Assembly: GCA_965226375.1 (NCBI GenBank)
Contig: CBDDCX010000007.1
Coordinates: 626,336-690,335 of the forward strand
Direction of reading: 5' to 3'
DNA from: Longimicrobiales bacterium
GTDB taxonomy: Bacteria > Gemmatimonadota > Gemmatimonadetes > Longimicrobiales > Gaopeijiaceae
Length of the DNA: 64,000 nucleotides
Shown here: in pieces, positions 2,541-62,440 of the stretch
Position numbering within the stretch: the stretch's first letter is position 1
How the letters are laid out: each line of letters starts with the position of its first letter
Made by a program: the position numbers and the translations under genes
Notes under the pieces: generated by a model
What the model saw: only the letters and a program-made list of their open reading frames with translations
Database searches by the model: none
Told to the model about the DNA's origin: nothing

Positions 2541-3065
2541 ATGCAGACCCTGGAGGAGCAATTCAACACACGGCTGAACGCGTTTCTGGGCAGCACGGGC
2601 CTGAGGCCGACGACGCTCGGCATGCAGGCGGTGGGCGACCCGAGCCTGTTACGCCAGATCGAGCGGGGACGCTCGCCGTCGCTCAGGACGGCGGACCGGA
2701 TTCTGGCCTTCATGGCCGCCTACGAGCAGGACTCGGGCGGCGCGAGGGCTCCGCCCGGCCGCCTGGCCGGGCCGGGGCCGGCGACGCGGGGGAGGAAGGC
2801 GAACCGGAGCAGAGCGATGAGTGAACAACCGATCGAACAGAGAACGAACCCGCCGATCCGTTTCCTGCGGATCTCGGCTGTCGAGGCGCTGACGGGCCTG
2901 TCGCGGACCACGATCTACGACTGGTCGGCACAGGGGCGCTTCCCCCGGGCGGTCCGGCTGAGCGAGCGCGCGGTGCGCTGGATCGAGTCGGAGGTCGAGG
3001 AATGGATGGATGACCGGATCGAGCAGGGCCGGGGCGGGGACGCCTCGGCGGCAAAACACAACTGA
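2541..3065 (+). CDS. HTH (Cro-like) domain fused in frame to an AlpA-family regulator/excisionase
   Basis: C-terminal 'RFLRISAVEALTGLSRTTIYDWSAQGRFPRAVRLSERAVRWIESEVEEWM' is the AlpA signature. Internal in-frame ATG at 2817. Confidence 0.85.
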   Translation: MQTLEEQFNTRLNAFLGSTGLRPTTLGMQAVGDPSLLRQIERGRSPSLRTADRILAFMAAYEQDSGGARAPPGRLAGPGPATRGRKANRSRAMSEQPIEQRTNPPIRFLRISAVEALTGLSRTTIYDWSAQGRFPRAVRLSERAVRWIESEVEEWMDDRIEQGRGGDASAAKHN

Positions 3066-3084
3066 ACCCCAAGGAGGAGAGAGA

Positions 3085-3372
3085 ATGAGAACGTTGTCGA
3101 GAACGCTGCAAGCGGCGGCCTGGGCCACGCTGTGGTTGCTGTTCCCCGGGGTGCTGTGGGCTCAGGGGACGAGCCCGTGGGTGGAGGCGGTGAACGAGCT
3201 GCAGGCGCAGTTCACGGGTCCGATCGCGCGGGGGCTGTCGCTGATCGCGATCGTGGTGGGCGGGCTGATGTTCGCGTTCGGCGAGGGCGGTAGCAAGCGG
3301 ACGCTGGCCGGGATCATCTTCGGTCTCGGGATGGCGATGGGCGCGGCGAACTTCCTGGCCTGGCTGTTCTGA
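3085..3372 (+). CDS. virB2: TrbC/VirB2 family pilin
   Basis: AGGAGG RBS, signal peptide, 'SPW..FTGPIARGLSLIAIVVGGLMFAFGEGG' pilin motif. Confidence 0.9.
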   Translation: MRTLSRTLQAAAWATLWLLFPGVLWAQGTSPWVEAVNELQAQFTGPIARGLSLIAIVVGGLMFAFGEGGSKRTLAGIIFGLGMAMGAANFLAWLF

Positions 3373-3674
3373 TGCGGGGTCTGAGGCGCTGGGCCGGCTA
3401 TGCGGCGCTGAACCGTCCGCTGACGATCCTGGGCGTGGAGCGTAGGGGGTTTCTCCTCGTCGCGACGCTCGGGCTCGCGATGTGGAACGCGACGGCTTCG
3501 CTCGTGACGGGCGGCGTGGTGTTCGCGGTGGGCTACGGGGCCGGGTGGCTGGCCGGCCGCAAAGACCCGGACATGCTTGGCGTGCTACGGGCCGGGACGC
3601 GTTACCCGGCGCGGTTCGACCCGGGCAAGTGGGCCGAAGAGCCGTGGCATCTCGTGATCCGGAGCGGGCGATGA
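3372..3674 (+). CDS. virB3: VirB3/TrbD family T4SS membrane protein
   Basis: 'ALNRPLTILGVER' and 'RKDP' motifs, two TM segments, translational coupling between virB2 and virB4. Confidence 0.85.
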   Translation: MRGLRRWAGYAALNRPLTILGVERRGFLLVATLGLAMWNATASLVTGGVVFAVGYGAGWLAGRKDPDMLGVLRAGTRYPARFDPGKWAEEPWHLVIRSGR

Positions 3675-6119
3675 GGATCTCCGCGGAGCTCCGGGACCAC
3701 GAGGCGGCCGGCTCGCTGGCCGAGGAGCTGCCCTACTGGGGCTGGCTCGAGGACGGCCGCACCTGCCTGACCCGCACGGGCGAGCTGATCGCAGCCGGGT
3801 GTCTTGCGCCTGCGGTAGTCGATGGGCGTTCGCCCGAACAGATCGACCGCGTGCTGGGCCGCTGGCAGCGGTTGCTCTCGGGTTTGGACGCTGACACGCG
3901 CCTCTACTTCTATATGCTCCGCCGGCCAAGTCCGCCCGAGGCCGCGGACGACGAGGGCTCCGGCATCGTAGCGGTGTCGCAGCGTAAGCGGAGTGCGTTT
4001 CTGGCTCGGGCCGCGTGCAGCGGCTCGAAGCCTATCTGGTCTGGTCGCACGATCCCCGTCTCCGGGCGGTCGCCGACGGGCCAACATCGGGAAGAGCGTC
4101 CCGGCTCATGCAGTGGTGGAAGCGCCGCCGAGGGGGCGCGCCCACCTACCTGCGGTCCGAGATCGAGGCGGCCGCCGCCCGCTTTCGCGCGACGGTGGAC
4201 GCGGGCCGGGCGCTCGTGGAGGAGCACACGCCGATCGAGATGCTCGAGCCCGCCGAAGCCTCGCGGCTCCTCTCCGAGCTGATCAACCGTCCGGGCACGA
4301 TGTGGGACGGCGCGACGGGGAGCGGTATGAACTGGCGGCTCGCCCTCTCGGAGCTCGAGGCGGAGCGCAGTCACCTGCGCCTCGACGGCGAGCCCGTGAT
4401 CCTGTACTCGCTTCTGTCGCCACCCGGACAGACGCGGGCGAACCTGCTCCAGGAGCTCTACTGCCTGGACGCGGTGATGACGGTCTCGCTCGAGTGGCGG
4501 CCGTGGGCGATGGAAGCGGCCCGGCGCCGGATCCGTGGCGCGCAGCGCCACTACTTCGCCAGGCGCTACTCGATGATGGCGCATGTGCAGGAGACGGAGG
4601 GCACGGCCGCCGCGATGGTCGACTCGGCCGCGGCGACGGAGTCGGACCGGCTGGGCGAGGCGCTGGTCGAGCTGGAAGCGGACGGCGTGAGCTACGGCGA
4701 GGCCACGCTGACCGTGGCGCTCCACGGCGAGCTTGGGAGCATCGAACGTTTGGACGGCGACCTCCGTCGACTCTTCGCCGCGCACGACGCGAAGGTGATC
4801 CGGGAGGGTTACGGCCAGCTGCCGGCCTGGTTCGCGCGGCTCCCGGCCCAGCCTCGCGGGCGGCAGGTGCGGAAGGTGTTCGTGTCGGCCGGCGTGGCGG
4901 CGTGCCTGGCGCCGCTGTTCGGGCCGCCACGGGGGACGCGGCTAAGAGCCGTCACCTTGGCCGTGAGTCGCTCACGGTCTTGGAGACCCCGTGGCGCACG
5001 GCGTACCACTACGACCTGTTTGCCGGTGATGTGGGCCACACGCTGATGCTCGGCGCGACCGGCTCGGGCAAGAGCTTCACACTCAACTTCCTCCTGGTCG
5101 AGGCGCTCAGGTACGACCCGCGCGTCCTGATTCTGGATCTGGGCGGCTCCTACCGTTGGCTGACCCGGTTCCTCGGGGGGCGCTACCTGGAGCTGTCGCC
5201 CGGCGAGGCGGAGCCCACGCTCCGGCTGCAGCCGTTCGCGCTCCCGGCGGGCACGCGGACGTTCCAGTTCCTGACGGGCTGGGTGCTCCGGCTGCTGAAG
5301 CTCGGCGGTTGGGAAGCGAGCGGGGCGGATACGAGCGAGATCCGGGCCCGGATCGAGGACCTCTATGCGTTCGAGCCGGAGCGGCGGACGCTGAGCGTCC
5401 TGGCAAGCTCGCTTCCGTCCGCGACGTGGCCGGCCTGGAGCCGTTGGATCGAAGGCGGCGCCTGGGGCGCGTACTTCGATAACCCGGCCGTCGGAGCGCC
5501 GGATCTCGAGTTCGCCGACTGGCAGGTGATCGATCTCGCCGGCGCGGTCGAGCATCCGGATCTCTGCGACGCGGCGCTCTCCTACCTGCTCGAGCGGATG
5601 CGCCTCGAGGTGGAGGATCCGTCCGAGGCGACGCGGCTGAAGCTGATGGTCGTGGACGAAGCCTGGCGCTACCTGCAGGACCCCGCCGTGCTGAACTACC
5701 TGGCCGAGGCGGCGAAGACGTGGCGGAAGAAGAACGCCGCGTTGATCCTCGCCACGCAGTCCGCCGTGGACGTGACGGCAACGCCCGGCGCTGCGGCGCT
5801 CCTCGAGTCGATCCCGACCAAGCTGTTCCTCGCGAACCCGGAGCTCCCCGACGCGGTCGGGGCGCTGTTCCGGCTGAACGAGTCGGAGCTGGCCCAGGTC
5901 CGGGGCCTGATCCCCAAACGCGAGCTCTACCTGCGCCGCCCGGACGGGGCGGCGGTGCTCCGGCTCGAGGTCGATCCGGAGAGCTACTGGCTCTACACCT
6001 CGTCCGCATTGGACGCCGAGGAGCGGGCCCGGGCCGTCGAGCGTCACGGACTCAGCCGGGCCCTCGAGGTGCTCGCGAGCCGAGACGATCCCACCCCCAC
6101 CCCCAACGCAAGGAGCTGA
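3671..6119 (+). pseudogene. virB4: VirB4/TrbE ATPase, split by two frameshifts (~4010 and ~4940)
   Basis: Three consecutive frames give ELPYWG.., then the middle domain, then Walker A GATGSGKS, Walker B MVVDEAW and 'KTWRKKNAALILATQS'. Confidence 0.9.
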
Positions 6120-6125
6120 TACGCC

Positions 6126-7006
6126 ATGCGATCCCCGACTACACCCCTCGTTCTAATTGACGCTTCTCTTGGCGGCGCTTCCCTGCCGGGGCTACCGCCC
6201 AGCAGGCGGACGACGACCAAGCGTTCCTCCGAGTGCCGGTCCCGGAGGAGGGGGAGGACCGGATCCACCGGCTCCGCACCCAAGTCCGTCACACGACGGT
6301 CATCGTGCTCCCCGCCGATGAGAACATCCTGGATTTCGTGGTCGGCGACTCGGAGTACTGGCACCTGACCGGCGCGGCGAATGTCGCGTTCCTGAAGCCC
6401 CTGCGGCCGGACGCGGCGACGAACATCGCGCTCGTATGCGAGTCGGGGCGGATCTACTCGTTCCTGGTGGCCGAGCAGAGCGCCGAGGAGAACGAGCGAC
6501 CGCCCCATCTGGTCGTGCGCTTCGAGTCCGGAGCAGAGGCGGCGCGGCTCTCCGGCGGCAGCGGCCGTCCCGCGTTCGTCGCGCGGAGCGAGGTCGCGGC
6601 CTACCAGCAGATGGCCGCCGAGGCGGCCGAGGCCGCGCGGAGTGCCCGGGAGGCGGCCGAGGCCGGCATCCTGGAAGCCCGGACTCAGGCTGAGTCGGCG
6701 ATCGAGGAGTTCCGTGCCGGCTATCCGGAGCGTCTCGCCTTCGAGTACCGGCTCGACGGGGACGCGGCGGACCGGCCGTTCCTGGTCGAAGCGATGTGGC
6801 ACGACGGGCAGTTCACCTACCTCCGGTCCCACGCCCAGGAGTCGCCGGCCCTCTATGAGCTCCGGGACGGCGAACCGGCGCTCGTGGCCTACGATCTGAC
6901 GGAGGACGGGCTCTACGTCGCCCGCCATGTGCTGGCCGACGGGTGGCTGCAGATCGGCGACAAGCGGGCCAGCTGGCGGTTCACGCCCAGGGACGGGCTC
7001 CGATGA
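6126..7006 (+). CDS. virB9: TrbG/VirB9 family T4SS protein (apparent frameshift in the signal-peptide region)
   Basis: 'TTVIVLPADENILDFVVGDSEYW', 'FLKP..ATNI' and 'MWHDGQFTYL' motifs. The main frame (6233..7006) is out of frame with the RBS-ATG at 6126. Confidence 0.8.
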
Positions 7007-8268
7007 GCCGCTGGAAGCAGTGGGTCCGGCCCCCGGAAGGCGCGCTGCCGGGCGGCATCGTGACGAAGGCGGGCGTGGTGTTGATCGCCGTGCTCGTCGG
7101 TGGACTCCTCTTCTCGTGGGCGATGACGGGTCCCCAGGAAGCCGACACTCTCGTAGCCCTGCCCGAGGCGCAGGCGGTCGACGACGGGATGGGGAGGTCG
7201 CTCCAGGCGCGCATTCGGCAAGAGGCCGAGCGGCAGACTCTGGAGGCCGCCGCCCGGGCGCGCGCCGAGCTCGAGCGCCGGCAGGCTGCGGCCGCCGGGG
7301 AGATGGCTCGGCTCCAGACCGAGTCGGAGACGCCGAACACCGCAGCCTTGATCCCAGGCATCGGCGCGGCCGAGTCGGAGCTTAGGGAGGCGCTTCGGCT
7401 GGAGGAGCTGGAGCGAAGAACCCGCTCGCTCCGTGCCCTTCCCGTGGCTCAGTCGTACAGGGATCCGAACGCGACCGCGGAGTCGTCCGAAGCCGGCACC
7501 GGCGATGCGGCCGACGCGGATGTGGCGCTCCTCGAGAACACGGTCCAAGCGGCTCTCGCCTCATTCGAGCAGTCGGTCGGGGCGCTCGAGGACGAGTTGG
7601 CAGCGGAGTTGGCGGCCGGGCAGCTCCTCTCCGGCTCCCCGGGACCTGCCGCACCGCCAAGCTCTCCTCGCACCCCCGGCACGGCTGAGCCCGGCCGGAG
7701 CGTCCGGCCCGCCGACCCGCCGGGTTGGGAGCGGATCTACGAGGGCTCGTTCCTCGAGGCGGTGCTTCTCACGCAGCTCACGGGCGATTTCCCCGGACCG
7801 GTGCTCGCGATGGTCTCGGTCCCGTTCTATTCGGCCGACCGCCAGCGGATCCTGATCCCGCGCGGCGCACGCGTCGTCGGCACGGCCCGGGCCGTTCAGG
7901 ACCCGGACCAGAGCCGGCTCGCCGTCGCCTTCCACCGGCTGCTCCTGCCCGACGGCAGCTGGATCGACCTCGAGTTCACCGGTCTGAACCAGGCGGGCGA
8001 GGGCGCCCTTCAGGACCAGGTCGACCGCCACTACTTCAGCACGTTCGCGGCGGCCGGAGCCATCGGCGTCGTGAGCGGGCTCGCCTTGGCCGGCGGTTCG
8101 CCGTTCGGCCTGAGGGCGGGCGTCGGCCAGGGCCTCGGCCAGAGCGCGACCTCGGTTCTCGACCGGTTCCTGAACCGGCTACCCACGATCACGATCCGCG
8201 CGGGCCATCGCCTGCGCATCTGGTTCACGTCCGACGTCCTGGTCCCGAGGGCCGGGACACGGCAATAA
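7003..8268 (+). CDS. virB10: TrbI/VirB10 family T4SS protein
   Basis: N-terminal TM, coiled coil, 'EGSFLEAVL', 'ILIPRGARVVG', 'GEGALQDQVDRHY', 'PTITIRAGHR'. Confidence 0.9.
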   Translation: MSRWKQWVRPPEGALPGGIVTKAGVVLIAVLVGGLLFSWAMTGPQEADTLVALPEAQAVDDGMGRSLQARIRQEAERQTLEAAARARAELERRQAAAAGEMARLQTESETPNTAALIPGIGAAESELREALRLEELERRTRSLRALPVAQSYRDPNATAESSEAGTGDAADADVALLENTVQAALASFEQSVGALEDELAAELAAGQLLSGSPGPAAPPSSPRTPGTAEPGRSVRPADPPGWERIYEGSFLEAVLLTQLTGDFPGPVLAMVSVPFYSADRQRILIPRGARVVGTARAVQDPDQSRLAVAFHRLLLPDGSWIDLEFTGLNQAGEGALQDQVDRHYFSTFAAAGAIGVVSGLALAGGSPFGLRAGVGQGLGQSATSVLDRFLNRLPTITIRAGHRLRIWFTSDVLVPRAGTRQ

Positions 8269-8285
8269 CACCAAAGGAGCTCATC

Positions 8286-9194
8286 ATGCGTCACAGAACC
8301 CTTACCACCGCCCTCTTGGTCTCCATCCTGATGCTCGCGAGCGCAGGGCCGGCAAACGCCCTCTTCGACATCGGCGGCGTGATTCAGCGTGCCCAGATGA
8401 TCGTGAACCAAGCGACCCAGATCGCGAACCAGATCCGCCAGATGCGGACGATGACCCGTCAGCTCACCGAGCTCGAGGAGCAGCTCGACTACATGAAGGA
8501 GGCCGCGAGGGGCGAGGTGGACGCTTTGATCGAGCCGTTCGCGGAGCTGGCGGCCGGATCCATCGGCCTCGTCGGCGACGACCTCGACTGGGGCTCCGAG
8601 TTCAGCGGAGCGGCCGGCGAGCTGGTCGACGCGGTGCGTGGCATGGGGAGCGGCGACTCGTTCACCGATGTCTGGCGGAGCGCCCAAGGGGTGGCCGACC
8701 AGGTGAGCGAGGCGGACATCCTCGAGCTGTTCCGTAACCGCCCGGCCGAGGCGTCGTCGCGCGCGGTGGAGGACTACCGCCAGGCCCGTGAGGCAGCCGA
8801 CCGGCAGCGCGTGCTCGACTACGCGATGATGGACGCCGCGGCCTCGCTCGCCTCGACCGTCGAGAGCGCCCAGGACTCGTTCGACGACCTGACCGCGAAT
8901 GGGAACCTGTCCAACACGGCGCTCCAGCAGGCGCAGGTCGCGGCCGCGCTGACGCAGGGCCGGATCAACGCCGCCGTGGCGCAGGTGCTCGCCTATCAGG
9001 CGGTCGAGCAAGCGAACCGGATGCAGCAGGCCGAGATCGACCGGCTCGAGCGGCTCGCCGAGTGGAGGGACGCGCGCCTCCGTACGAACGCGATGGCCGA
9101 TGCGATGCGCACGGCCGCGTTCCAGAATCGCGACCGGCTCCGGGAGGGGCTCCTGTTCAAGATCCCGTCGTTCTACATGGGCGGCCAGGCGTAG
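8286..9194 (+). CDS. TrbJ/VirB5-like secreted T4SS protein
   Basis: AAGGAG RBS, signal peptide, Gln-rich helical 'QIANQIRQ..QL' pattern, position directly before virB6. Confidence 0.65.
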   Translation: MRHRTLTTALLVSILMLASAGPANALFDIGGVIQRAQMIVNQATQIANQIRQMRTMTRQLTELEEQLDYMKEAARGEVDALIEPFAELAAGSIGLVGDDLDWGSEFSGAAGELVDAVRGMGSGDSFTDVWRSAQGVADQVSEADILELFRNRPAEASSRAVEDYRQAREAADRQRVLDYAMMDAAASLASTVESAQDSFDDLTANGNLSNTALQQAQVAAALTQGRINAAVAQVLAYQAVEQANRMQQAEIDRLERLAEWRDARLRTNAMADAMRTAAFQNRDRLREGLLFKIPSFYMGGQA

Positions 9195-9212
9195 GCCCCG
9201 GGAGCGACTGTC

Positions 9213-10223
9213 ATGCAACTCCTGCCACCGCAGTCGATCGATCCGAACGTCCCGGCCCAGATCCCCGCGGATCAGCTCCAGGACTTCAAGGGGTTCCTGG
9301 ACGTCGTGCTCGACACCGTGGTCGGCGGCGCCGCGCCCGACGTGCTCACGCTCGGCCACCAGCTGTGGGGCGGTCTCGCGGCGATCGTCGTCGCCTGGAG
9401 CGGGCTCAAGATCGCGTTCAGCGGAACCTTCGAGCCCTGGTCCCTCGTGCGGGTCGTGCTCGGGATCGCGATCCCCCGGACGATGCTCCACTACTACAGC
9501 GTCCCGATCCCGGGCGTGGGCTTCACGTTCCCGGCCATGGTCGCGGCCGGAGGGATCTGGCTCCAGAACCTGTTCATCTCCGATGTCGTGTCCGTCGGCT
9601 ACACGGAGATGACCGCGCTCGTCCAGGCGTTCGCCGCACGGCTCGGCGCGGCATGGTCCGGCGGGAGCCTGATGACCCTCGTGACCGAGGGCGTGAGCGT
9701 GTTCTTCTCGTCCCTCGTCGCGCTGATGATGGGCGTGCCGCTCGTGCTCGGCCTCGTCGCGCTCTTCTGCCTGACCTACGCGCAGGTGATCTGGGCGCAG
9801 GTGGCGCTCGCGATCGTGATCCTGCTCGGCCCCGTGTTCATCCCCTGGCTGCTCTTCGAGCCGCTCGCGTTCCTGTTCTGGGGATGGTTCCGCACGCTCA
9901 TGGTCTACACGCTCTACGGCGTCGTAGCCGGTGCCATCCTGAGGGTCTTCATGGGCGTGGGCATGGGCTACGTCACGACCTATACCGGCGCCCTGATGGG
10001 CACCGGCTCCTCCGACCCGGCGGAGCTAGGGCTGTGGGTCGTCGTCCTGCTCCCGCTCGTCGTCTCCGGCCTGATGGCCGGCATGAAGGTGGGCGAGCTC
10101 GCCGCGATGCTCGTCTCCGGCTCCGGATCCGTCGGATCGGGATTCATGGCGCTCGCGGTGCGCGGCGGCGGACGCCTCAGCGCTGCCGCGAACCCGGCCC
10201 GCCCCCCAATCCCCGGAGGCTGA
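9213..10223 (+). CDS. virB6: TrbL/VirB6 family polytopic membrane protein
   Basis: Multiple TM helices with 'LLGPVFIPWLLFEPLAFLFWGWFR'. Confidence 0.85.
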   Translation: MQLLPPQSIDPNVPAQIPADQLQDFKGFLDVVLDTVVGGAAPDVLTLGHQLWGGLAAIVVAWSGLKIAFSGTFEPWSLVRVVLGIAIPRTMLHYYSVPIPGVGFTFPAMVAAGGIWLQNLFISDVVSVGYTEMTALVQAFAARLGAAWSGGSLMTLVTEGVSVFFSSLVALMMGVPLVLGLVALFCLTYAQVIWAQVALAIVILLGPVFIPWLLFEPLAFLFWGWFRTLMVYTLYGVVAGAILRVFMGVGMGYVTTYTGALMGTGSSDPAELGLWVVVLLPLVVSGLMAGMKVGELAAMLVSGSGSVGSGFMALAVRGGGRLSAAANPARPPIPGG

Positions 10224-10234
10224 AGGAGACGTCC

Positions 10235-10903
10235 ATGAACCGAGAACACGATGCCGGCCGCGAGTACGCGGAGATCTGGGGCGAGACCGTCGAGGCGAAC
10301 CGGAAGCTCCGGACTCTTGCAATGATTCTCGGAGGAGCGTGCCTCGCGCTCGCCGTGCTCCTGCTCCGGGTCGCGACCGTCGAGCCGCCTCGGCCGATCG
10401 TGGTCCGGGTCGACGAGGTCGGCCGCGCCGAGGCCGTGGCCTACGAGGCCGCAACGGCGCAGGCGGATCCGCTCGATCCCACGACCAAGTACTTCCTTAA
10501 CCGGTTCATCGCCGACTTCTACTCCAGGCGCCAGGCGACGGTCGAGGAGCAGTGGACGCGGAGCCTCCGCTTCCTCTCGACCGAGCTGGCGAACGCCGCG
10601 TTCACGAGGGACGGCGCCGAGGTCGCCGCCATGGCGGCTGGCACCGCTAACACTGAGATCCAGGTCGAGCAGGTCGTGCTCCGCATCCACCCCGCACCGG
10701 AGGCGCCGCACGGCGCGACCGCCGACTTCGACCTGGTCCACCTCAGGCAGGGGCAGGAGACCCGGCGCGAGCGCTGGTCGATCACGCTCCGGTTCACGTT
10801 CCTCACCGTCATCCCCTCCCAGCTCGTCGTCTACAACCCGATGGGCATCCTCATCACCTACCTCCAGGCCGACCGTGCCCTGGTCACGGAGCCGCCCAGG
10901 TGA
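10235..10903 (+). CDS. virB8: VirB8/TrbF family T4SS protein
   Basis: Single TM, 'PIVVRVDEVGRAEAV', C-terminal 'NPMGILIT'. Confidence 0.85.
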   Translation: MNREHDAGREYAEIWGETVEANRKLRTLAMILGGACLALAVLLLRVATVEPPRPIVVRVDEVGRAEAVAYEAATAQADPLDPTTKYFLNRFIADFYSRRQATVEEQWTRSLRFLSTELANAAFTRDGAEVAAMAAGTANTEIQVEQVVLRIHPAPEAPHGATADFDLVHLRQGQETRRERWSITLRFTFLTVIPSQLVVYNPMGILITYLQADRALVTEPPR

Positions 10904-11832
10904 TCGCCCATCTGCGGGGACGGGAAGCGGCGCTCGAGCCGTTCGGTTGGACGGGACGCCAGGCCGAGTGGATCGCGCTGGCATGCCTCCACAGCGGCGT
11001 GTTCACCCGCACCCAGGCGACGCGGTTCCTGGACACGCATCACGAGCGGGCGCGCCGCCTCGTCCACGCGCTGATCGCGCAGGGCCTCGCCGCCGAGGAG
11101 ACCGTGCCGGGCGTTCGGGGGATCGGCCGCGTGTGCCGGATCTTCTCCCGGGGTCTATACCGCGCGCTCGGAGCCGAGCACATCCGCCACCGCCGCACGG
11201 CGTCCGCCGACGTGCTCATGCGCCGCCTGCTCTCGCTCGACTACGTGATCGAGCACTCGGGTCTGCCCTGGCTCCCGACCGAACCCGAGAAGGTCGCCGC
11301 GTTCGAGGCCCTCGGGATCGAGCGCGAGTTGCTGCCCTCGCGCCTCTACCGCGGCGCCGCCGGGGACACCCGGCGCTGCTTCCCGCTCAAACTGCCGGTC
11401 GCACTGGACTCGGGCCGTGCAGTGTTCGTCTACGTCGATCCCGGACACGACACCTCGACCGCGCTCCGTTCCTGGGGAGCGGCGCACCGCGGGCTCTGGC
11501 TCGCGCTCGCAAACCAAGGCCGGTCCGTCGAGGTCGTCGCCGTCGCCCGCACTTCGCGGGAGATGGACCGGGCCCTGGCCGTGATGAGCGGCTGGGCTGA
11601 GGCGTCCGGCCCCGGCGAGCCCGACGCCGGGATCCGTGAGGAACTTGCCCGGATCGAGCGGGCGATCCTTCAGGGCGCGGTCCAGATCCTCGAGGAGTTC
11701 GGAGGCCTGCAAGCCGCCCTGAAACGCAGCGTGGCGCTGGAGAAGCAGGCCCGCCGGCAGGCAGGCCGCGGGGCGATTCACCACGGCGTCGCCTGGCAAA
11801 CGGTGCGCCTCGCGGGAGCGCGCTACCGGTGA
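10900..11832 (+). CDS. Uncharacterised T4SS-linked protein 'orfX' (probable N-terminal winged helix; possibly replication-relaxation-like)
   Basis: GTG start overlaps the virB8 stop. Homologues at 58221-58537 and 61467-62440(-) show that it is a real gene. Function is inferred only. Confidence 0.75.
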   Translation: MIAHLRGREAALEPFGWTGRQAEWIALACLHSGVFTRTQATRFLDTHHERARRLVHALIAQGLAAEETVPGVRGIGRVCRIFSRGLYRALGAEHIRHRRTASADVLMRRLLSLDYVIEHSGLPWLPTEPEKVAAFEALGIERELLPSRLYRGAAGDTRRCFPLKLPVALDSGRAVFVYVDPGHDTSTALRSWGAAHRGLWLALANQGRSVEVVAVARTSREMDRALAVMSGWAEASGPGEPDAGIREELARIERAILQGAVQILEEFGGLQAALKRSVALEKQARRQAGRGAIHHGVAWQTVRLAGARYR

Positions 11833-12110
11833 CGACCGGCGCGCGTCTCATGGCCGCACTGGAGTGCGCAAACGACGCGGGGGGCCGATGCGCACTTTGG
11901 CCCTCCGGCGATGCGCGCCGGTGCTACGGAGTAAGCCACGACACGGCCACGTCTTGCGCCTACACGCCCAGATAGAATCCCCTGATGTTTATTATCGTCC
12001 ATTAGAGTCTATAACATACTGTATTACAACACTTTGTGATCTTCACGCAGTCCCTCGTATTCCTCACAACGTCTCTTGATATCCACTACCATCCCTTATA
12101 TTATGAGGTA

Positions 12111-13346
12111 ATGTATGACGTAACGAACACCACCGATCCGCCCCGGAAAACCAAGCCCAAGGGCCGCCATCCCGACAAGGCCCTGTCGGCCGCCTTTGTG
12201 CGTACCGCCCCGCCGGGCAGGCATTGCGACGGTAACGGGCTCTACCTCTTCGTTCAGCCGAGCGGTGCCCGGAGCTGGGTTCAACGCCTGGTCATCCGCG
12301 GTCGGCGTCGTGACTTCGGACTCGGCAGCGTCGCGCTGGTCTCGCTCGCCGAAGCACGTGAGAAGGCGCGAGCGAACCGCAAGTTGGCCCGTGAGGGCGG
12401 CGACCCCCTTGCGGAGAAACGCCGCGCCCGGGGCATGCCGAGCTTTGCGGAAGCGGCCGCAAAGGTGGTGGAGCAGAAGCGGACCGGTTGGCGCAATCCG
12501 AAGCAGGCCCACGACTGGATGTCGAGCCTCGAGCGGTACGCCTTCCCGCGCATTGGCGAGATGGCGGTGTCGGATGTGACGAGCGCCGATGTGCTGGAGA
12601 TCCTCACTCTGATCTGGCACGTGAAGGCAGCCTTGGCGCGAAACGTGCGATGGAGGATCCGGGCGGTGCTGGAGTGGGCCGTGGCGATGGAGCTCAGGAC
12701 CGACAACCCCTGCGACCGGCTCGGCTCGGTGCTAAGCCCCCAGCATGACGTGGTGCAGCACCTGCGGGCGTTGCCGCATCGCGAGGTGGCATCGGCGATC
12801 GAGGCGGCACGAACATCGGAGGCGGAGCCAGCCGTCCGTCTGGCGTTCGAGTTCCTGGTGCTGACGGCGGCGAGGTGGAGCGAGGTGCGGTGGGCCGAGT
12901 GGGCTGAGATCGATCGGAAGGAGGCGGTGTGGACGGTTCCCCCGGCGCGCATGAAGGCGAGGCGGGAGCACCGGGTGCCGCTATGTGGCCGAGCGATGCA
13001 GATCCTAGAGGAGGCTCGGAAGCTCGGAGACGGCAGCCCCCTCGTGTTCACTCTTGGGGATGGGCAACCGATTTTCGACAAGCGGCTGCGCCGACTACTC
13101 CGAAAGCTCGAGATCGCGGCCGTGCCGCATGGGTTCCGGTCGAGCTTCCGCGACTGGGCGGCCGAAGAGACGGACTATCCGCGTGAGGTCGTCGAGGCCG
13201 CGCTGGCGCATGTGGTGAAGAACAAGGTCGAGGCGGCCTACAGGCGAACGGACCTGTTCGAGCGCCGGCGCCGGCTCATGGACGACTGGACGGCCTACTT
13301 GGCCGGCGAGCGTGGAGATGCAGCCGACGTCAGGCCGGTCCGTTGA
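12111..13346 (+). CDS. P4-type tyrosine integrase with arm-DNA-binding domain
   Basis: 'DGNGLYLFVQPSGARSW', 'LTAARWSEV', 'HGFRSSFRDW', 'ALAH..VEAAYRR' (R-HxxR-H-Y). Confidence 0.95.
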   Translation: MYDVTNTTDPPRKTKPKGRHPDKALSAAFVRTAPPGRHCDGNGLYLFVQPSGARSWVQRLVIRGRRRDFGLGSVALVSLAEAREKARANRKLAREGGDPLAEKRRARGMPSFAEAAAKVVEQKRTGWRNPKQAHDWMSSLERYAFPRIGEMAVSDVTSADVLEILTLIWHVKAALARNVRWRIRAVLEWAVAMELRTDNPCDRLGSVLSPQHDVVQHLRALPHREVASAIEAARTSEAEPAVRLAFEFLVLTAARWSEVRWAEWAEIDRKEAVWTVPPARMKARREHRVPLCGRAMQILEEARKLGDGSPLVFTLGDGQPIFDKRLRRLLRKLEIAAVPHGFRSSFRDWAAEETDYPREVVEAALAHVVKNKVEAAYRRTDLFERRRRLMDDWTAYLAGERGDAADVRPVR

Positions 13347-13702: not shown

Positions 13703-14612
13703 CTATCCGGCTTTCTTTGATGGCACAGGGACATACACATTCTTGAGGGGGTACCGAGCCCGTAGACTAGGGTCCAACCTCTCGTAGTGATCCAGAAAGA
13801 GTGCCACGAAACGGGTGGCGTCAATGAGGGTCACGTTAGCGCTGCCTTGGGCCACATTCAGAGCTCCAGTGGAGAAACGTCCAAGGGATACGAGGATCCC
13901 TTTTTCTTCGGAATTCAGCAGACCTTTCAGTTGGTTGACCACGGGTTCGCCGATAGTGCTTGTGCCACTCTTAACCTGCACTTTTACATAGGGTCTCTCA
14001 ATTCCCAGAGGGTCTGGGTGGGCAATGACATCAACTCCGTGGTCTCCAGAGGGAGGGGTGACAAAAGCCGTGTAACCCATAGCCCGAAACACTGCTGCAA
14101 CGACCTGCTCAAAATGAACACCGGTTCGTTGCCAGGCCTTGAGTAGATAGTCCTCGGTTGCCTGAATAGCTTGCTCATCGAGAGCTGCAAATTCTTCATC
14201 GTCAGCCATCTCATCATCATCGACCAGGATCGCTTCAGTGTCCTTGGCATCAAGGATCGCTTTGACTTCCTCCAAATGGTCGTTGGACGTACTAACGGTC
14301 AAGAATGCTCCGAAGCTGTTGAGTGCGGGCTGGGAGAACGCGGTACGCGGAACAATTGACAACCACTCGACATTTCGGATGCTCTGCTTGGAAGGACGAC
14401 CGCTGTCGAAGCGATATTCTCCTGTGATCGTCCCGATCGCGATCTGCTTGGTCGGTTTGACTGGGAGTACAATCGGATCACCGACCTTCATCTCATGGGC
14501 GAATCGGTATAACTGACCGTACAAAGAATTTACCCGCTTCGCACTCGCTTCTGGAATCGCAGCCTCTACCGCTACCTTCGTCGTCTCTCTGGTGTCCAAG
14601 TGAGTCGCATCA
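13703..14612 (-). pseudogene. Mrr-like restriction endonuclease, 5'-truncated by the adjacent IS3
   Basis: Mrr_cat motif 'FEQVVAAVFRAMGY..GDHGVDVIA..VQVK', 'LIDATRFVAL'. The frame runs into the IS end, and the sequence is visibly lower in GC. Confidence 0.8.
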
Positions 14613-21487: not shown

Positions 21488-21713
21488 GAGATGCTCCCGG
21501 TAGACTTTTCTCAGGTCAGCTAATCCAAATAGCCGACGTAATTGTTGATGTGCTCCGTTAGTCCGAAGCAGCTCGATCTTCCATGACGAGTTCCTTTCGC
21601 CCTCAGATTTTCCCGGAGTCCGAGGCCCAGGGTAGCCAGCTAGCGAGCGTGCTCATTCGCGACACCCTCCTTCTCGATCCGCGGCCGAAGGCCCGGCCTC
21701 CCACGAGGCCCTC

Positions 21714-23138
21714 CTAGCGGATCCGCTGCGGCAGGTCCGGCCCGTCGTCCCAGAACTGAGCACTCGAGATGTTCGGCATCGCCCAGTCGTTACCGTTCCA
21801 GCCCTGGAAGCCGTCGAGCCTGAACGCCCAGAATCCGGTGTTGAAGTCGCTCACCACGATAAGCCCATCCGCGTTTCGGATGTCCACGCCCCAGGCGCCG
21901 TCGTAGATGTTACCTGTGGTGGTGTTACCCGTCACCAGCGCACCTTCTCCTCCGTAGAGGCTGGGACCCTGCCGCGTGTGGTAGTATCCCTCGGTAAAGG
22001 GATGCGTGGGATCGGTCATGTTGACGATCTGGAGCCCGTCGTCCTGGCCCGAGATGAAGACGTACGGCCACCGCATCTCATGGTTGTGGGTCGCGCCCCC
22101 GAACTTTGCCATCCATGCCCCGATCCCGGATCCCGTGACGATGTTGGGGGTCTGTCCCTCCGACCCGGGCGGCCGCAGGTCGAAGAAGCGGATCGGCGAG
22201 TGCTGGTAGGTGGGTACGGACATGCCGAGTCCGTAGCGCCCGTCGGGTGTGGGTGTGAAGGTATGCCCGCTCTCGACCCCGGGGATGCCGGTGACCGACG
22301 TGATGAGCCGCGGGTTCTCCACATCCGTCACGTCCATCACGTGGTATCCTCCGCCACCGGCACCGTAGAACCGGTCCTGCGCCGCGTCAGGAAGGAACCC
22401 GAGGTACATGTCGTGCCACTGCTGGTAGCGAACCGCCGAGGGATCGGGGACGGCGATCGCCGAGACCGGATCCAAATTGCCCGCCGCGACCTGTGCGATG
22501 TCATAGACGAAGGCGTCCTTCGACGTGGTGGTTGCGACCAGGAGCGAGCGGCCGTTGGAGTGCTTGTACGTGAAGATGTTATGGAAGCCCCCCGGCAGAT
22601 CCGGGACTCGGAGCTCCGCGACCTTCCGCACCGTCGACCCATCCGGTAGCCCGGTGACGTCGAAGACCATGGCTCCCAGGTCGAAGTCCGGGCCCCCCTG
22701 CCCGAACTGACAGGACACGATCAGGTAGTAGCGGCCCTCGGCCTTGGCGTACTTCGGATCGAGACATCCGGAACCGAGATGCAGATCGGGGTCGTCCACG
22801 ATGTAACGGTACAGGACCCGGGGATGCTCCTCGTCCTCGATGCTGATCGCATAGAATCCTGACGCGCCGAAGCGCTGCGCGATGTAGACGAAGGGCCGAT
22901 CCATCTCCTGCTCGATCTCGATGTCGGCGTGGCTGAAGCGCTGCCCGGGCAGAGGAATGTGCGAGACCACTTCGATGTTGGGCGTACCGCGGCGACCTAC
23001 TGGGTAGCCTGTCTCCGGCTGAATGCAGGTCGGGTCGCCGAAGCACGTCACTTGCGCTACCGCGCTGGAAGCCGCGAGTCCGACGGCCATCGCCGCCAGG
23101 GTGAGCGCATACAGAACCGGCAGGGTTCGCTGACGCAT
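21714..23138 (-). CDS. Secreted LVIVD-repeat beta-propeller protein, paralogue A
   Basis: GGAG RBS, signal peptide, 'DDGLQIVNMTDPTHP', 'GAWGVDIRNADGLIVVSD'. Confidence 0.85.
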   Translation of the reverse strand: MRQRTLPVLYALTLAAMAVGLAASSAVAQVTCFGDPTCIQPETGYPVGRRGTPNIEVVSHIPLPGQRFSHADIEIEQEMDRPFVYIAQRFGASGFYAISIEDEEHPRVLYRYIVDDPDLHLGSGCLDPKYAKAEGRYYLIVSCQFGQGGPDFDLGAMVFDVTGLPDGSTVRKVAELRVPDLPGGFHNIFTYKHSNGRSLLVATTTSKDAFVYDIAQVAAGNLDPVSAIAVPDPSAVRYQQWHDMYLGFLPDAAQDRFYGAGGGGYHVMDVTDVENPRLITSVTGIPGVESGHTFTPTPDGRYGLGMSVPTYQHSPIRFFDLRPPGSEGQTPNIVTGSGIGAWMAKFGGATHNHEMRWPYVFISGQDDGLQIVNMTDPTHPFTEGYYHTRQGPSLYGGEGALVTGNTTTGNIYDGAWGVDIRNADGLIVVSDFNTGFWAFRLDGFQGWNGNDWAMPNISSAQFWDDGPDLPQRIR

Positions 23139-23204
23139 GATCACTCCTCCGTGCTTGAAGTCTTCAGGATGCGTGCAGGCGGGTGACAGATCGGACATGG
23201 CTGC

Positions 23205-23234
23205 AAAATGCCCCTAGGTCGCGCCCAACCACAA
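23205..23234 (-). promoter_or_regulatory. Putative sigma70-type promoter of the LVIVD genes
   Basis: TTGTGG-N18-CATTTT here (also near 26.73 and 40.27 kb), and TTGTGG-N18-TATTTT at 38587-38616 with a diverged spacer. Confidence 0.55.
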
Positions 23235-23273
23235 GGCGAGGCGGCCCTTCGTGGGAAAAGCGAGGTGGCCCTC

Positions 23274-23447
23274 CCGTGCTCCGCGAGGCCTGGGCCGCTC
23301 ATCCCGACCGCTTCGTCTCCGGTGAGCCAAACCCCAAACCCCTCCCCGAGGCCGTCTGGATCAATCCTCCAAGCCTAACCCTCACTACACAGGAGATTGC
23401 TCTCTAATTGATTCCCCGGAGTGTCTCACAATCGTTGACAGGTTCCG
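23274..23447 (+). mobile_element. IS3 right-end remnant
   Basis: Encodes VLREAWAAHPDRFVSG..TQEIAL* and the GTTGACAGGTTCCG end, matching the 3' end of the IS at 14613. Confidence 0.9.
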
Positions 23448-23517
23448 ATCCGGTTCATTGAGCAGGGCCTTCTTCATGACGATCACCTCCGGTGCCGGCC
23501 TGGGCGAAGCTCGGCGC

Positions 23518-24939: not shown

Positions 24940-25020
24940 AGCGGGCTCCTTGGGTTTTCGGGTCACCGGGCGAGTGACGCGCCGGGCCTCAAAGGTGCGG
25001 TACCCGAGCCGGTCGCTCAA

Positions 25021-25120
25021 GATGCCTATCCGGAGAACGAGGCGGTCTACCTGAAGAGCTCACCGATCTTCAAGGTCCACCAGGTGACCACACCCACCTT
25101 CGTGATCCAGGGCGAGGGGG
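25021..25120 (+). pseudogene. Small remnant of an S9-family peptidase
   Basis: 'YLKSSPIFKVHQVTTPTFVIQGE' resembles the S9 C-terminal motif. Confidence 0.45.
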
Positions 25121-25233
25121 TGCCGGCCGACTGGCAGCTCCCCGAAGGAGAGCCCCCTCCGATCAGCGAGCGTACTCATTCTCGAGCCTCCTTGTCGATT
25201 TCGCTGCCGAGGCCCGGCCTCGGCCGTGTCTTC

Positions 25234-26658: not shown

Positions 26659-27079
26659 GATCACTCCTCAGTGCTTGAAGTCTTCAGGATGCGTGCAGGC
26701 GGGTGACAGATCGGACTTGGCTGCAAAATGCCCCTAGGTCGCGCCCAACCACAAGGCGAGGCGGCCCTTCGTAGGAAAAGCAACGTGCCCCTAAGGCCGG
26801 GCGAGCCGTACTACTTCGGGCCGGGGTATCGGTTCGGGCGGTGAGGCACCGATTCGATCATGGCGTGGAGTCAAGAGGAGTCGGGCGTCGGGGATGACAT
26901 CTTGAGCCTTCTCGTGCCGCGTCGGGTGGGGGAAGACGTTGGCTCGCGCCCCATCGTCCTGGAGAGCGGTGCCGAGGCGCGACGGGTCGAAGCGGGTTCT
27001 GACGAAGGGGTCCCCAGGTGTTGTCGCCGGGAGCCCCCGCACTCTCCTGAGGACCCCTCGGTGGGATCCTAGAGAGCGC

Positions 27080-28450: not shown

Positions 28451-28671
28451 TGCAACCTCCGGATGACTGGTAGCGCTTCCGTCGATTGACGGACTCGCGC
28501 CAAGCCTATGGGGGTTGTAGGCCGAGCGCCAGTGTAGCATTGAATGGACGATCGCACGCCGCACCGGTACTGGGGCAATCAGTTCATGCGGTGTCTGTGC
28601 AGTTCTCGATGGCCGTTGACAGCGCAGGCCGAGAGTCTGCACCGGCCCCTCTGGACGGTGGGCAGCTTGCT

Positions 28672-37078: not shown

Positions 37079-37092
37079 GCAGTGAGGCCCTC

Positions 37093-50683: not shown

Positions 50684-52083
50684 GATGCTTCGACTCTATT
50701 TCCAGTGAACCATGATTGATCGAGACACCGAGTGGCGGGGGGACCGGGCGGCGATGGAGGCCCGAATCGGGGAGCAACTGGAGCGCATGGGGGCGCGGAT
50801 CGTAGACCGGGTGCGGGAGGACCGGGCGGCGATCCTGGAGGCCTTGGCCACCCCAAGGGATCGCCCGGGAGCCTAGTAGTGGACCCTGACTTTGTTCGGC
50901 CGTGGAATAAGGGCTACTTGGTCTGGTGTGTGGGGCTGCTGGGAGGCATGTTGGCGTTAGAGCCGGTTGTTCGTGTGGCTTGTGAGGCGGTTCTCGACGG
51001 CCGCACGCCGCGCCCGCTCGCGCTCGTTAGGCGGTGTGTTGGGGTAATGGAAGTACAGGGGGGGGAGCTCAGTGGAGACTCTTACTTTTGGTGGTGGATC
51101 CTCCCGATGGGGCTACTGTGGTGGGGATGGGCGTTTTGGGACTCGTGGCGGAGGCCCTGAGCCGCGCTATTCGCGACGTTCTCCCACCTGCGGCGGACGC
51201 TCTTCTGCGTGGAACGCTGGCCGCTCGGCCCCGAGCCTCGGTTGAACGGTTCGGAAATCATCTCGCGGGCCTCTGATGGGATAGCAGCCCGTGGTAGAAG
51301 CAGGGCTCAGTCTTCGCAAGTCCCGATGGGACAACGACTTGGCTACACCTTGCGAGAGACGTGTATCACCTGGTGTGTCCGAAGGATCTAAACCGTGTTA
51401 CCCTTTGGGTTTACAACAGAAACGGAGAAGGATCTAGAGGCTCGACCCCAGCATGATAGACGGCTTTGCCGTGTGGCGTTCGAGTCCGCTTCCCGGAGGT
51501 GGTTTTGACAACCGGTCGCGGGGGCCGATGCCGATCCACGGGTGCCCATCCGACATCAGGAGTGGAGGGACACGAAATCGCCCTTCCGATGGGCACGCCG
51601 ACCGTTCCACAAGTCGCTGGGCGCCTTGCGGTTACACTGCGGCCACCGGACCGGCAGTGCCGCGCCGGAACCTGCGGCCGTGACCGGAGCGACCCCGGTT
51701 TCGATGCCTCGATCGGCATCGCGGAGGGTTGGCATGTGAACACCCATACCACCGTCCGCCGGGGGTCGCTCCCCTCCAGCAATCTCCGGACTGCCTCCGG
51801 AAAATCTATAACACATGTGATATATAGCACTTACACATTCCGTGACTTTGCTCGTCCCCCCATTTCATCCGCCGTATTGAATCGGTTTTCGACGGCCCTT
51901 CGTGGATCTGAATGGATGGCCATCGCCTGCGCCTCCGTCCTTCCCGTACCCGACGGGCCGGACAGCCCGACCGCTGTTGCCATCGCAACCAAAGGCAACC
52001 TGCGCGACCTAGTGCGACCTAGATATAGATACGTCATGCACCGATTAGCGAGCGTACAGCCGAGAAATGGTCGCGGTGTTGAT

Positions 52084-56222: not shown

Positions 56223-58220
<1,998 letters not shown>

Positions 58221-58222
<2 letters not shown>

Positions 58223-58537
58223 GGCGTGGCCGTCGTCCGCACCGTGAGGGAGCTGCAGCGGGCCCTGACGATCCTCGAGAACTGGACCAACACATCTACA
58301 GCATCCGGCCCCTCCGCTGTTCCGGAACCCGACAGTGCGGCTCGCCGCGAGATCGCCCGAATCGAGCAGGCCATCCGCAAGAAGGATGACCGGGTGCTCA
58401 AAGAGTATGGCGACCTGCAGGCCTGCCTCAAGCGGATCGTCGAGCTGAACGACCTCCACCGATCCTCGACTCCCGGAACGATGATCCACGGCTTCGCGAC
58501 ATGGCGCTCGAGACGGCTCCCTGGAGGCCGATTTTGA
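58221..58537 (+). pseudogene. C-terminal remnant of orfX (copy 2)
   Basis: 'VAVVRTVRELQRALTILENW..EIARIEQAI..EYGDLQACLKR' aligns with 'VAVARTSREMDRALAVMSGW..ELARIERAI..EFGGLQAALKR' of 10900..11832. Confidence 0.85.
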
Positions 58538-58837
58538 ACGCGGATCGGCGAGGGTCGGTGCTGATCGGCGAGTGCACATCAGACAACGGGGTGCATGTGC
58601 ACCGAAACGCCATTTTCATGTGCGCGCCAGCGCTCCCTTATGTGCCTGGCTGTCTTGCAGTTGCGGCACGGCCGCCGGAGCGGCGACGCCGCTCCGGAGC
58701 TTTCGGCCGAAGAAGGGAGCGACCCCCCAGTCCGAGGGCCTGGTACGGGTTCGGGGGCAGGTGTGTTTGCGCACCTGCCCCCGCCCTCCTGGGGTCGCTC
58801 CCGAGCCATCGATCCTTCCAGGAAGGGTGTTGGACCG

Positions 58838-59612
58838 ATGAGGCCGGCTACGCTCGCCATCATCGGCACCGCTCTGGGAGCGGCCGCAGGCCACGCTTTC
58901 CGGGCGCCGTTCCCCGGCATGGGCGGCAACCCCGTGCTGGACTTGATCGCCTACCACGATCCGGGCTTCCACACGGTGATCCGCGTCTGGTACTACGCGG
59001 TCCCGGCCGTCGTCGTCGTCCTTGCCGGGAGCGTGTGCCTCTCGGTCTGGAGGGTGTGGCTTCAGCCGCCCGCAAGGGGCGGCGGCCGGGGCAGGCTCCC
59101 CGCCTGGCCCGCCTCGCCCGAGGACGACGCACCCTCGCTCGTGATTCGGCGAGCTGCACCATCCGACCGTTCCGCGAGAGAGCGAGCGGCCCTCCTGGCT
59201 CGTCGTTCCCGAGACGGGGCTGTACACGGGCGTCCTCATCGTCGGCGCCGTCGGCTCCGGCAAGACCACCGCCTGCATGTACCCGTTCGCCCAGCAGCTC
59301 CTCTCGTGGCAAGCCGACCGGGCCGGGCGCCGGGCCAGTGCCCTTGTGCTCGAGGTCAAGGGCGACTTCTGCTACAGCGTGCGCCGCATCCTCGACGCCG
59401 CCGGGCGCGGCGGCGACTACCTCGAGATCGGGCTCGACGGTTCGTTGCAGTGGAACCCGCTCGACGATCCGCTGCTCGACTCCTACTCGCTCGCCTACGG
59501 CGTCGCCTCCCTCATCAACCAGCTCTTCGGCAAGAGCCGAGAACCGTTCTGGCAGCAAGCCTATACGAATCTCGTGCGCTGGATCATCGAACTGTACCGG
59601 CTCATCCATTGA
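58838..59612 (+). pseudogene. VirD4/TraD-like coupling protein, N-terminal part (frameshift ~59145, truncated)
   Basis: N-terminal TM segments, Walker A 'GAVGSGKT', 'LVLEVKGDF', 'WNPLDD', 'EPFWQQA'. Confidence 0.8.
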
Positions 59613-61052: not shown

Positions 61053-61466
61053 CTGGAGCCGTGCCTCCCACGGTCGGCCCTGTCCCCAGCTCCCCGCCCG
61101 GGTCCTTCGCGGTAGCGCCGACACCCCGGCTGGACGGTCGGCGAACTGGGTGATCCGCCGCCTGGCAGCGGCGTTGAAAACCCTTCCCGGAGGGATATCT
61201 GGCCGGGAGCGACCCCAAGGGACGGGGGCCGGCGTGTGAAAACACACCTGCGTCCGAGCCCGCACCAGGCCCTCGGACTGGGGGGTCGCTCCCCTCCACG
61301 TCGGTGCTGCCCAGTGCGGCACCGGCGACCGGGTGGCAGCGAACGCAACTCCAAGCGCCCGCACGGGATAGCCGAATCCGGCGTCTGCGCATCTTCACGG
61401 GTGCCATGCGTGCATCGACCCCCAACGTCTCATGCACGCTCCAGTACGGCACAAGGCGTGGGCTTC

Positions 61467-62440
61467 TCATCGGAAGCGTGCCCCCGCGAGCCGAACCGTC
61501 CGCCAGGTGTCGGTGCGTTGCATCAGCCCCCGCCCTGCCTGCCTGCGCGCACGCTTCGTCAGCGCGACGCTGCGCTTCATCGCGGCCTGCAAGCCTCCGT
61601 ACTCCATCAGGACCGGGACATCCCCCTTGATGATGGCCTGGTCGATAAGGTCGATCTCGCGGCCGATCCCGTGGTCGAATTCGGAGGGGCGGGGATCGCG
61701 CGCCCAGTTGGCGAGCACGGTCTCCGCCCGGCTGTCCTCCTCCGGTGTCCGGACGATGGTCACGACCTCGATCCCGCAGCCGCGATCCCAGAGCGCCTTC
61801 CAGAGTTCGCGGTGCGCCGCGCCCCAGGAGCGGAGTGCCGTCGCTGTCTCGTGGCCCGGATCGAGGTAGACGAAAACGGCGCGCCGGGCGTCCAGCGCGA
61901 CCGGCAGCCGGAGCGGGAAGTAGCGCCGGAGGTTCCGGCCGCTCCCCGGTAGACCCGTTGGGGCAGGAGCGGGCGCTCGATGCCGAGCGCCTCGAAGGCG
62001 GCCACCTTCTCCGGCTCGGTCGGGAGCCAAGGCAGGCGGGAATGATCAAGCACATAGTCGAGCGAGAGCAGGCGCCGCATCAGCACTTCCGTGGAGGTGA
62101 TCCGGCGGCGGCGGCGGTTCCCGGCGCCGAGCGCCCGGTAGATCCGGCGCGCGTGGATTCGGCACACTCGACCGATGCCGTCGATGCCGGGCGGATCCTC
62201 TTCGACGGCCACGCCCTGCGCGACGAGGGCGCGGACGGCGCGGTGCACCTTTTCGTGGTGGCAACCCAGAAAGCTCGTCCACTGAGCCCGAGTGAACACG
62301 CCGCCATGGAGACAGGCCAAGGCGATCCACTCGGCCTGACGGCCCTCCCAGCCAAATCCCTCGAGTGCCCGTTCGCGTCCCCGCAGGTGGACGATGGCTC
62401 CGCTCGCCGCCGAGTTGAACTGCTGCTTCAGCGTCTTCAT
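61467..62440 (-). pseudogene. orfX copy 3, fused to the first codons of the HTH regulator; frameshift near 61935
   Basis: 'MKTLKQQFNS' followed by 'IVHLRGRERALEGFGWEGRQAEWIALACLHGG..' and, in the second frame, 'YFPLRLPVALDARRAVFVYLDPG..WRTVRLAGARFR'. Confidence 0.85.

Follow-up and report, generated by a model that had tools for sequence, protein, structure and literature searches.

Gene content of the locus

None of the copies found in the window (the whole 64,000-nt stretch of DNA analyzed here) is a complete working module. The features on which the analysis relies are the following.

2541..3065, plus strand: AlpA-like HTH leader gene of the element (Pfam Phage_AlpA, E 2.5e-20)
3010..10903, plus strand: MPF_T-like T4SS block, virB2, B3, B4, B9, B10, an unnamed ORF, B6 and B8
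10900..11832, plus strand: orfX copy 1, intact, 310 aa
11864..11870, plus strand: copy 1 box A, inverted word
11889..11895, plus strand: copy 1 box B, word TGCGCA
11912..11918, plus strand: copy 1 box C, which repeats B directly at +23 bp
11961..11962: copy 1 truncation point, where identity to the genome copy at C7:20579 stops
51453..51508, plus strand: copy 4, orfX reduced to a decayed stub of its 3′ end (stub plus site match L025 at 74.6% by blastn)
51542..51596, plus strand: copy 4 boxes A (51542-48), B (51567-73) and C (51590-96)
51686..51772, plus strand: large inverted repeat of copy 4, containing box D at 51735-41
56249..58217, plus strand: group II intron abutting the orfX copy 2 remnant (Rfam group II domains; RVT_1, GIIM)
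58226..58537, plus strand: orfX copy 2, 3′ remnant
58572..58625, plus strand: copy 2 boxes A (58572-78), B (58596-602) and C (58619-25), word TGTGCA
58715..58802, plus strand: large inverted repeat of copy 2, a candidate nick region; its box D (58768-74) has the copy-1-type word
58838..59612, plus strand: broken virD4-like coupling-protein gene (its intact L001 orthologue matches TrwB_AAD_bind and TraG-D_C)
59676-61052: second integrase, after the broken virD4
61205..61293, minus strand: large inverted repeat of copy 3, containing box D at 61240-61234
61385..61439, minus strand: copy 3 boxes A (61439-33), B (61414-08) and C (61391-85), mixed words
61467..62440, minus strand: orfX copy 3, frameshifted, joined straight to the element leader without the T4SS between

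In copy 1 the AlpA gene is followed by virB2-3-4-9-10-6-8 and then by orfX. The T4SS genes were assigned from matches to Pfam TrbC, VirB3, TraG P-loop, CagX, TrbI, TrbL and VirB8, with NCBIfam VirB4 matching below its cut-off, and we infer from its position that the unnamed ORF of the block is virB5-like. Past position 11961 the large repeat, virD4 and orfY are gone and an unrelated tyrosine-integrase element (12036-13346) is found instead; the missing segment was not found elsewhere in the window, and an intact continuation of this loose end is present in RNA run X8. This element repeatedly harbours tyrosine-integrase elements, located after the boxes, in ardC or after the start of virD4, as in the window insert just described, in G000:C6:12623-22850, which carries a MOB_P-type relaxase, and in L046, L058 and L059.

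Copy 2 lacks the 5′ part of orfX, only residues 213-309 being matched, and the intron that abuts it carries a reverse transcriptase/maturase gene and lies beside an IS110 transposase. A search of the whole window with Rfam 15 covariance models at E ≤ 1 returned group II intron matches only, none of them at the repeat site. In copy 3, positions 62441-62506 are homologous to the leader at 2451-2516, and the first codons of this copy resemble the start of the leader gene. Elsewhere in the window, among IS remnants, an unannotated gene of ~480-520 aa occurs in five copies (21700-28640 and 37084-40261) that are 68-98% alike in 300-nt blocks, with no Pfam match for the ORFs scanned, and defence-like genes (Mrr-type endonuclease, DUF7014/AbiJ-like, SIR2-like) lie at 13703-14599, 40806-41489 and 52084-53346.

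Contig C8 of the same genome keeps the whole site, 292 nt at 96.6%, between two deletions that together remove the T4SS, orfX, most of virD4, virB11, ardC and orfY. What is left (G000:C8:53070-53700) is the leader with the first 72 AlpA-like codons, a complete copy-1-type site and the right end of the element. Because the flanking genes were lost and these 292 nt spared, retention of the site fits a cis site used in trans, and this derivative is a candidate oriT-only hitcher. Another orphan site lies at C6:93500-93780, after an unrelated transposase-like stretch. Contigs assembled from RNA runs at low depth extend over the site without a peak in depth; as such contigs reveal neither the strand nor the ends of a transcript, we give this result no weight.

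A repeated word and a large inverted repeat downstream of orfX

A previous sequence-only reading of this DNA had described three perfect 7-bp inverted repeats, at 11864-11895, at 58572-58602 and, on the minus strand, at 61439-61408, as a covarying hairpin. The repeats are present as described, beginning 31, 34 and 27 nt past the orfX stop codon in copies 1, 2 and 3, each with GA in front and a GAC..GGGG spacer, and no ordinary terminator accompanies them: a scan of copy 2 revealed none, and copies 1 and 3 have 17-18-nt loops and no T run, the copy 1 stem being followed by TTT only. That inventory held three copies but lacked the large inverted repeat, box D and the fourth copy (51542-51772). 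The real unit is a locus-specific word of 6-7 bp that occurs four times: inverted as box A, forward as box B, again as box C at +23 bp after B, and once more as box D, within a large conserved inverted repeat that lies 90-92 bp from box C. The additional TGCGC formerly noted downstream is indeed present, 16-18 nt past the stem, but is the third copy of the word and “pairs” with arm A almost as well as box B does (43 versus 14.1 in shuffled data).

Taken singly, such a repeat is uninformative, because perfect 7-bp repeats with a 17-18-nt spacer are common both in the window (28) and in its shuffled versions (12-21 per shuffle, 10 shuffles). Its fixed place about 30 nt past the orfX stop codon in dozens of homologues is not due to chance. 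To compare loci, 137 downstream regions were dereplicated to 91, and the 65 with a large repeat within 330 nt were aligned without the boxes as a guide; removal of 7 misaligned rows left 58 loci for core agreement and stem counts. Among the 36,046 column pairs of the 65 loci, the three highest MI-APC scores link B4 with C4 (0.78), B5 with C5 (0.72) and B5 with D5 (0.69), all as same-base pairs; three complementary pairs of the large repeat rank next, and pairs of the A-B stem score lower (0.42 and 0.39). The 4-nt core agrees between B and C in 48/58 loci, between B and D in 43/58, and between A, as its complement, and B in 38/58.

Covariation between A and B is real, exceeding all shuffles and slid controls: pair counting over 43 sequences gave 52 cells changed on both sides versus 20.6 when shuffled, a value reached in 0 of 500 shuffles. 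The compensated stem changes reported earlier are to that extent genuine, but the 6-bp stem is perfect in only 27/58 loci. Its mismatches comprise 21 G-T and 18 A-C (17 and 18 in the other stem), with no G-U bias on either strand, and in copy 4 box A is exactly complementary to C and imperfectly to B. Because same-strand identity exceeds stem complementarity, G-U pairs are not preferred and folding of the flagged regions is no more stable than that of shuffled sequences (z −1.4, −0.6 and +0.2), these observations point to a protein-binding word copied in both orientations. One word repeated in this way explains the covariation better than a hairpin does, and the same folding scores speak against the RNA partner of OrfX that had been proposed.

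In many loci, GAC and a G run are retained in the A-B spacer. A C run replaces the G run in L106 and L142-L144, which have quite different words and the same box geometry. Some Acidobacteriota loci, with other words, have an extra fourth box at the left, or a 12-bp direct pair plus an inverted copy. In distant loci a 6-mer occurs three times in both orientations in 9/15 cases versus 2.2 expected, with no single locus below p 0.09. At least 122 stretches of viral contigs fit the pattern in a scan, by pattern match alone.

The large inverted repeat (arms GGAGCGACC and GGTCGCTCC) usually lies about 180 nt past the orfX stop codon. It was found in 118 of the 155 hits, duplicates included, down to about 20% protein identity, and was absent within 700 nt in the other 37. 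It folds stably (z −7.2 and −2.7), its outer stem displays true complementary covariation in the 65-locus alignment, and it is far more conserved than the A-B spacer. The left arm, 15 bp long (58715-58729 in copy 2), contains the crossover of copy 2, which is a clean chimera: sequence left of this 15-mer is about 98% L024-type and sequence right of it is L001-type, so that box D of copy 2 mismatches its boxes A-C. Copy 3 departs from L017 just past the left arm, and 7 of 37 breakpoints (6 distinct events) fall at alignment columns 467-489; the preset range of columns 470-495 contained 4 (p 0.05). This clustering is a hint only, as conserved blocks draw such calls. TraX has been reported to act as a recombinase (excerpts of PMC5714925).

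OrfX and its link to the word

The predicted model of OrfX (310 aa, pLDDT 90) combines a MarR-like winged helix (residues 1-95) with a PD-(D/E)XK-like domain. A fold search on this model matched residues 7-92 to MarR (Z 8.2) and the second domain best to SdaI (Z 7.6, rmsd 3.7, 120 residues aligned), as well as to other restriction-like nucleases, with Z-scores that are middling in both cases; we take these nuclease matches to belong to the PD-(D/E)XK type. Foldseek returned nothing at E ≤ 0.001. No Pfam or NCBIfam family and no PDB sequence matched OrfX, the ESM Atlas gave unnamed clusters only, and no relative was present among 72,556 plasmids or 50,697 phages.

We correlated distances between words with distances between 6-residue windows of OrfX over 51 loci, holding the rest of OrfX constant. 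The partial correlation peaks at residues 45-50 (r 0.36), about 3 sd above a background with mean 0.02 and sd 0.105 over 310 windows, and the top 6 windows all overlap these residues, which form the turn and the start of the predicted recognition helix of the winged helix. In copy 1 this helix starts with HHER at residues 47-50. Across loci, helix THH(E/D)R pairs with TGCGCA in 6/6 cases, AHPEQ with TTCAC in 14/14 and xxR(F/W) with TGTGC in 11/12, and L029 and L035, sister loci on a tree from which those columns were left out, have different helices and different words. The exception is one OrfX clade of 7 loci, to which window copy 3 belongs, with (C/S)H(P/H)EKV and three different words. By raw mutual information, C-terminal columns of OrfX score almost as high as the helix, the loci being related and physically linked. 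OrfX resembles an accessory factor by correlation only: the variable repeated word tracks OrfX, the OrfY side is conserved, and the 7-locus clade breaks the rule.

OrfY and the search for a relaxase

Among the named Atlas matches of OrfY, obtained from language-model features, 28/30 are Replic_Relax (score 0.90), and 3/35 OrfY members match PF13814 at E ≤ 1 (best 1.2e-4). The family keeps H147, D223, E241 and Y247 in 35/35 members; set against the acidic triad and tyrosine of MOB_C, it has invariant D223, E241 and Y247, with a single E only. It matches MarR by profile (E 2e-4), and its helix GGHPxTTRRAV is nearly invariant across words. Profiles of OrfX and OrfY align over the winged helices only (probability 24%), which leaves paralogy of the two proteins unsupported.

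By sequence profile, neither protein joins PF13814 or the MOB_C prototype. No gene of the genome matched PF13814 over the cut-off, 0/71 OrfX members matched it among the 25 families listed, and hhalign profile comparison of OrfX and OrfY with the pTEF1 relaxase gave no match (probability 0.2%). OrfY had no match in plasmids either. Because no relaxase profile matched over its cut-off, standard scans would probably call these elements relaxase-less T4SS.

Searches with TrwC, MobA_MobL and PF03432 did not find an HUH relaxase of the MOB_F/P/Q types consistently in the modules. TrwC and MobA_MobL had no match in the genome, which is 90% complete, and PF03432 had two: a decayed MOB_P-type fragment 1.3 kb beyond orfY on C5, and the gene in the integrase insert on C6. 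Used as a query, the C6 protein matched 1/12 modules, 9 kb beyond orfY; this search is of limited reach because it missed the C5 fragment.

Gene order and distribution

Intact relatives have the order orfX-virD4-virB11-ardC-orfY, seen in 11/12 modules fetched, and their site lies between the T4SS-orfX block and virD4-virB11-ardC-orfY. The start of virD4 is within 900 nt of the orfX stop codon in 78/116 distinct loci, virB8 abuts orfX in 31/62, and an integrase lies about 4 kb beyond orfY in L170. In distant Acidobacteriota loci, orfY is directly upstream of orfX. One orfX clade with mixed box words (L013, L017, L019, L021, L028, L031, L033, L036, L039 and window 61467-62506) has no virB8 match upstream in 7/7 loci with long flanks, and its members are possibly satellite elements.

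Relatives of OrfX (2,474 proteins matched of 8,000 candidates scored) were found in Gemmatimonadota of sponge type, in Acidobacteriota and in a small number of other bins. OrfX was found in 36/301 genomes sampled from the host phylum and in 44/351 sampled from that of G301, frequently as multiple copies. No published description of this element was found in a search of the openly accessible literature, and the preprint bioRxiv 2026.01.13.699239 has 0 occurrences of “Acidobacter” or “Gemmatimonad”.

Comparison with known transfer origins

The closest parallels are with MOB_C systems (pAD1/pTEF1 TraX; CloDF13 MobC; PF13814 Replic_Relax), which likewise have a large inverted repeat and short repeats by the coupling-protein gene. 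In the MOB_C plasmid pTEF1, a 142-nt inverted repeat lies beside 12-bp direct repeats, between the coupling protein and the relaxase; we take the pTEF1 replication-relaxation gene to be the TraX orthologue. Further likenesses are a protein with a winged helix and a PD-(D/E)XK-type domain, present here in the OrfX model with its middling Z-scores (for MOB_C, excerpts of PMC12857230), and an oriT with the MPF operon on one side and the relaxase gene on the other (excerpts of bioRxiv 2026.01.13.699239). TraX binds repeats located 70-120 bp from nic (PMC12857230), a distance to be compared with the 90-92 bp that separate box C from the large repeat. Unlike MOB_C, with its one such protein, the element described here has two; its repeats occur in both orientations on a 23-24 bp lattice and not as a 12-bp tandem array; they track OrfX and not OrfY, the likely nuclease; and homology to the pTEF1 relaxase is not detectable in sequence.

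A second parallel is the oriT of the pWBG749 family of Staphylococcus, in which a conserved core is accompanied by a variable word; one copy of the word lies in an arm of an inverted repeat and another at a distance of about 50 bp, in some cases on the opposite strand (parts of PMC8136818). The accessory factor SmpO sets oriT specificity there, and one substitution switches it (same parts of PMC8136818). Our site shares with this system the repeated variable word, including a copy in an inverted-repeat arm, and a putative accessory-type protein for specificity. SmpO is a small ribbon-helix-helix protein (excerpts of PMC4993578), whereas the model of the 310-aa OrfX shows a winged helix and an alpha/beta domain of nuclease fold, with no ribbon-helix-helix. 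By analogy, the element would work like a MOB_C oriT with SmpO-style control of specificity. The C8 derivative, which keeps only leader, site and right end, resembles oriT-only hitcher islands but represents another oriT family, and its mobility is putative.

Candidate function of the site

Gene context, the anatomy of OrfX and retention of the site in deletion derivatives all back the earlier suggestion of a cis site (oriT) of a conjugative module, and we consider it likely that the region is an oriT. The boxes are very probably double-stranded DNA sites read by the winged helix of OrfX, A and B being bound as a head-to-head pair. Our preferred reading, which we hold to be reasonably probable, is that the boxes confer specificity on a MOB_C-like oriT: OrfX would read them, and OrfY would probably nick within the large repeat. 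The site would then be the specificity part of a roughly 290-bp transfer origin of an integrative conjugative element found in Acidobacteriota and in sponge-associated Gemmatimonadota, and word and OrfX helix would change together from one element to another. A finer division of tasks, in which OrfX would be a specificity or loading factor and OrfY would cut in or at the large repeat and pass the strand to VirD4, has in our estimation about an even chance of being correct.

It is improbable that OrfX itself is the nicking enzyme, cutting the G-rich A-B spacer and leaving another role to OrfY, as the previous reading implied for the stem. We infer only from sequence that OrfX would be inactive as a nuclease, and it may not be, because D114, E128 and D180 of its nuclease-like domain are kept in 44, 39 and 32 of 45 members; K131 is conserved too, and GAC with a G run persists in many spacers. 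On the other hand, the presumed PD aspartate, mapped by motif analogy, is D in only 14/45 members and L in the window, a C run takes the place of the G run in the four loci mentioned above, and conservation is far higher in the large repeat. Nicking at the stem by OrfX is made doubtful also by the invariant nuclease-type residues of OrfY and by the location of the conserved, stably folding part, which is the large repeat downstream.

In iteron origins, repeats spaced at about two helical turns follow the gene for a winged-helix protein. This arrangement recurs here, and retention in small derivatives fits any cis origin, so that the boxes might be iterons of a vegetative replication origin of the excised element with OrfX as initiator; we regard this as very unlikely, given that the site is G+C-rich and without an A+T-rich unwinding region, that orfX sits between virB8 and virD4, and that the plasmids and phages searched contain no OrfX relative. 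Relaxase-type origins can serve in both roles, according to excerpts of PMC5714925, which lends this alternative some weight.

The MarR-like fold of OrfX and the position of the boxes upstream of virD4 would also suit boxes that are operators only, through which OrfX regulates transcription of virD4-virB11-ardC-orfY. We judge this highly improbable: no sigma-70-type promoter was found in 58400-59000 (the host may use promoters of another kind), contig C8 and copy 4 retain the site after loss of the downstream genes, and the large repeat would be left unexplained. A region that acts as a structured RNA, with A pairing now with B and now with C, would account for the A-B covariation and for the very stable large repeat with its covarying outer stem, but is scarcely credible in view of direct-copy identity above stem complementarity, equal G-T and A-C mismatches in both stems, a minimum-energy RNA fold without the A-B stem in copies 1 and 2, the lack of any Rfam match and a word that tracks a DNA-binding helix.

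Implications of a probable MOB_C-like oriT

The reading of the site as a MOB_C-like oriT supplies a precise candidate origin, defined by its four boxes, by the region where the nick may lie and by predicted pairs of cognate helix and word. It is relevant to the choice of origin by MOB_C-like, non-HUH relaxases and provides a natural code for recognition by winged helices. A bolder proposal, which we think rather unlikely, is that recognition and cutting fall to two different winged-helix/PD-(D/E)XK proteins, which would constitute a new class of relaxase: a short recodable helix of OrfX would read the boxes of its own element, and a universal OrfY would nick one strand of a conserved cruciform. 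If that were true, diverging helix-word pairs would be private transfer keys for co-resident copies of the element, and oriT-only derivatives would hijack these keys.
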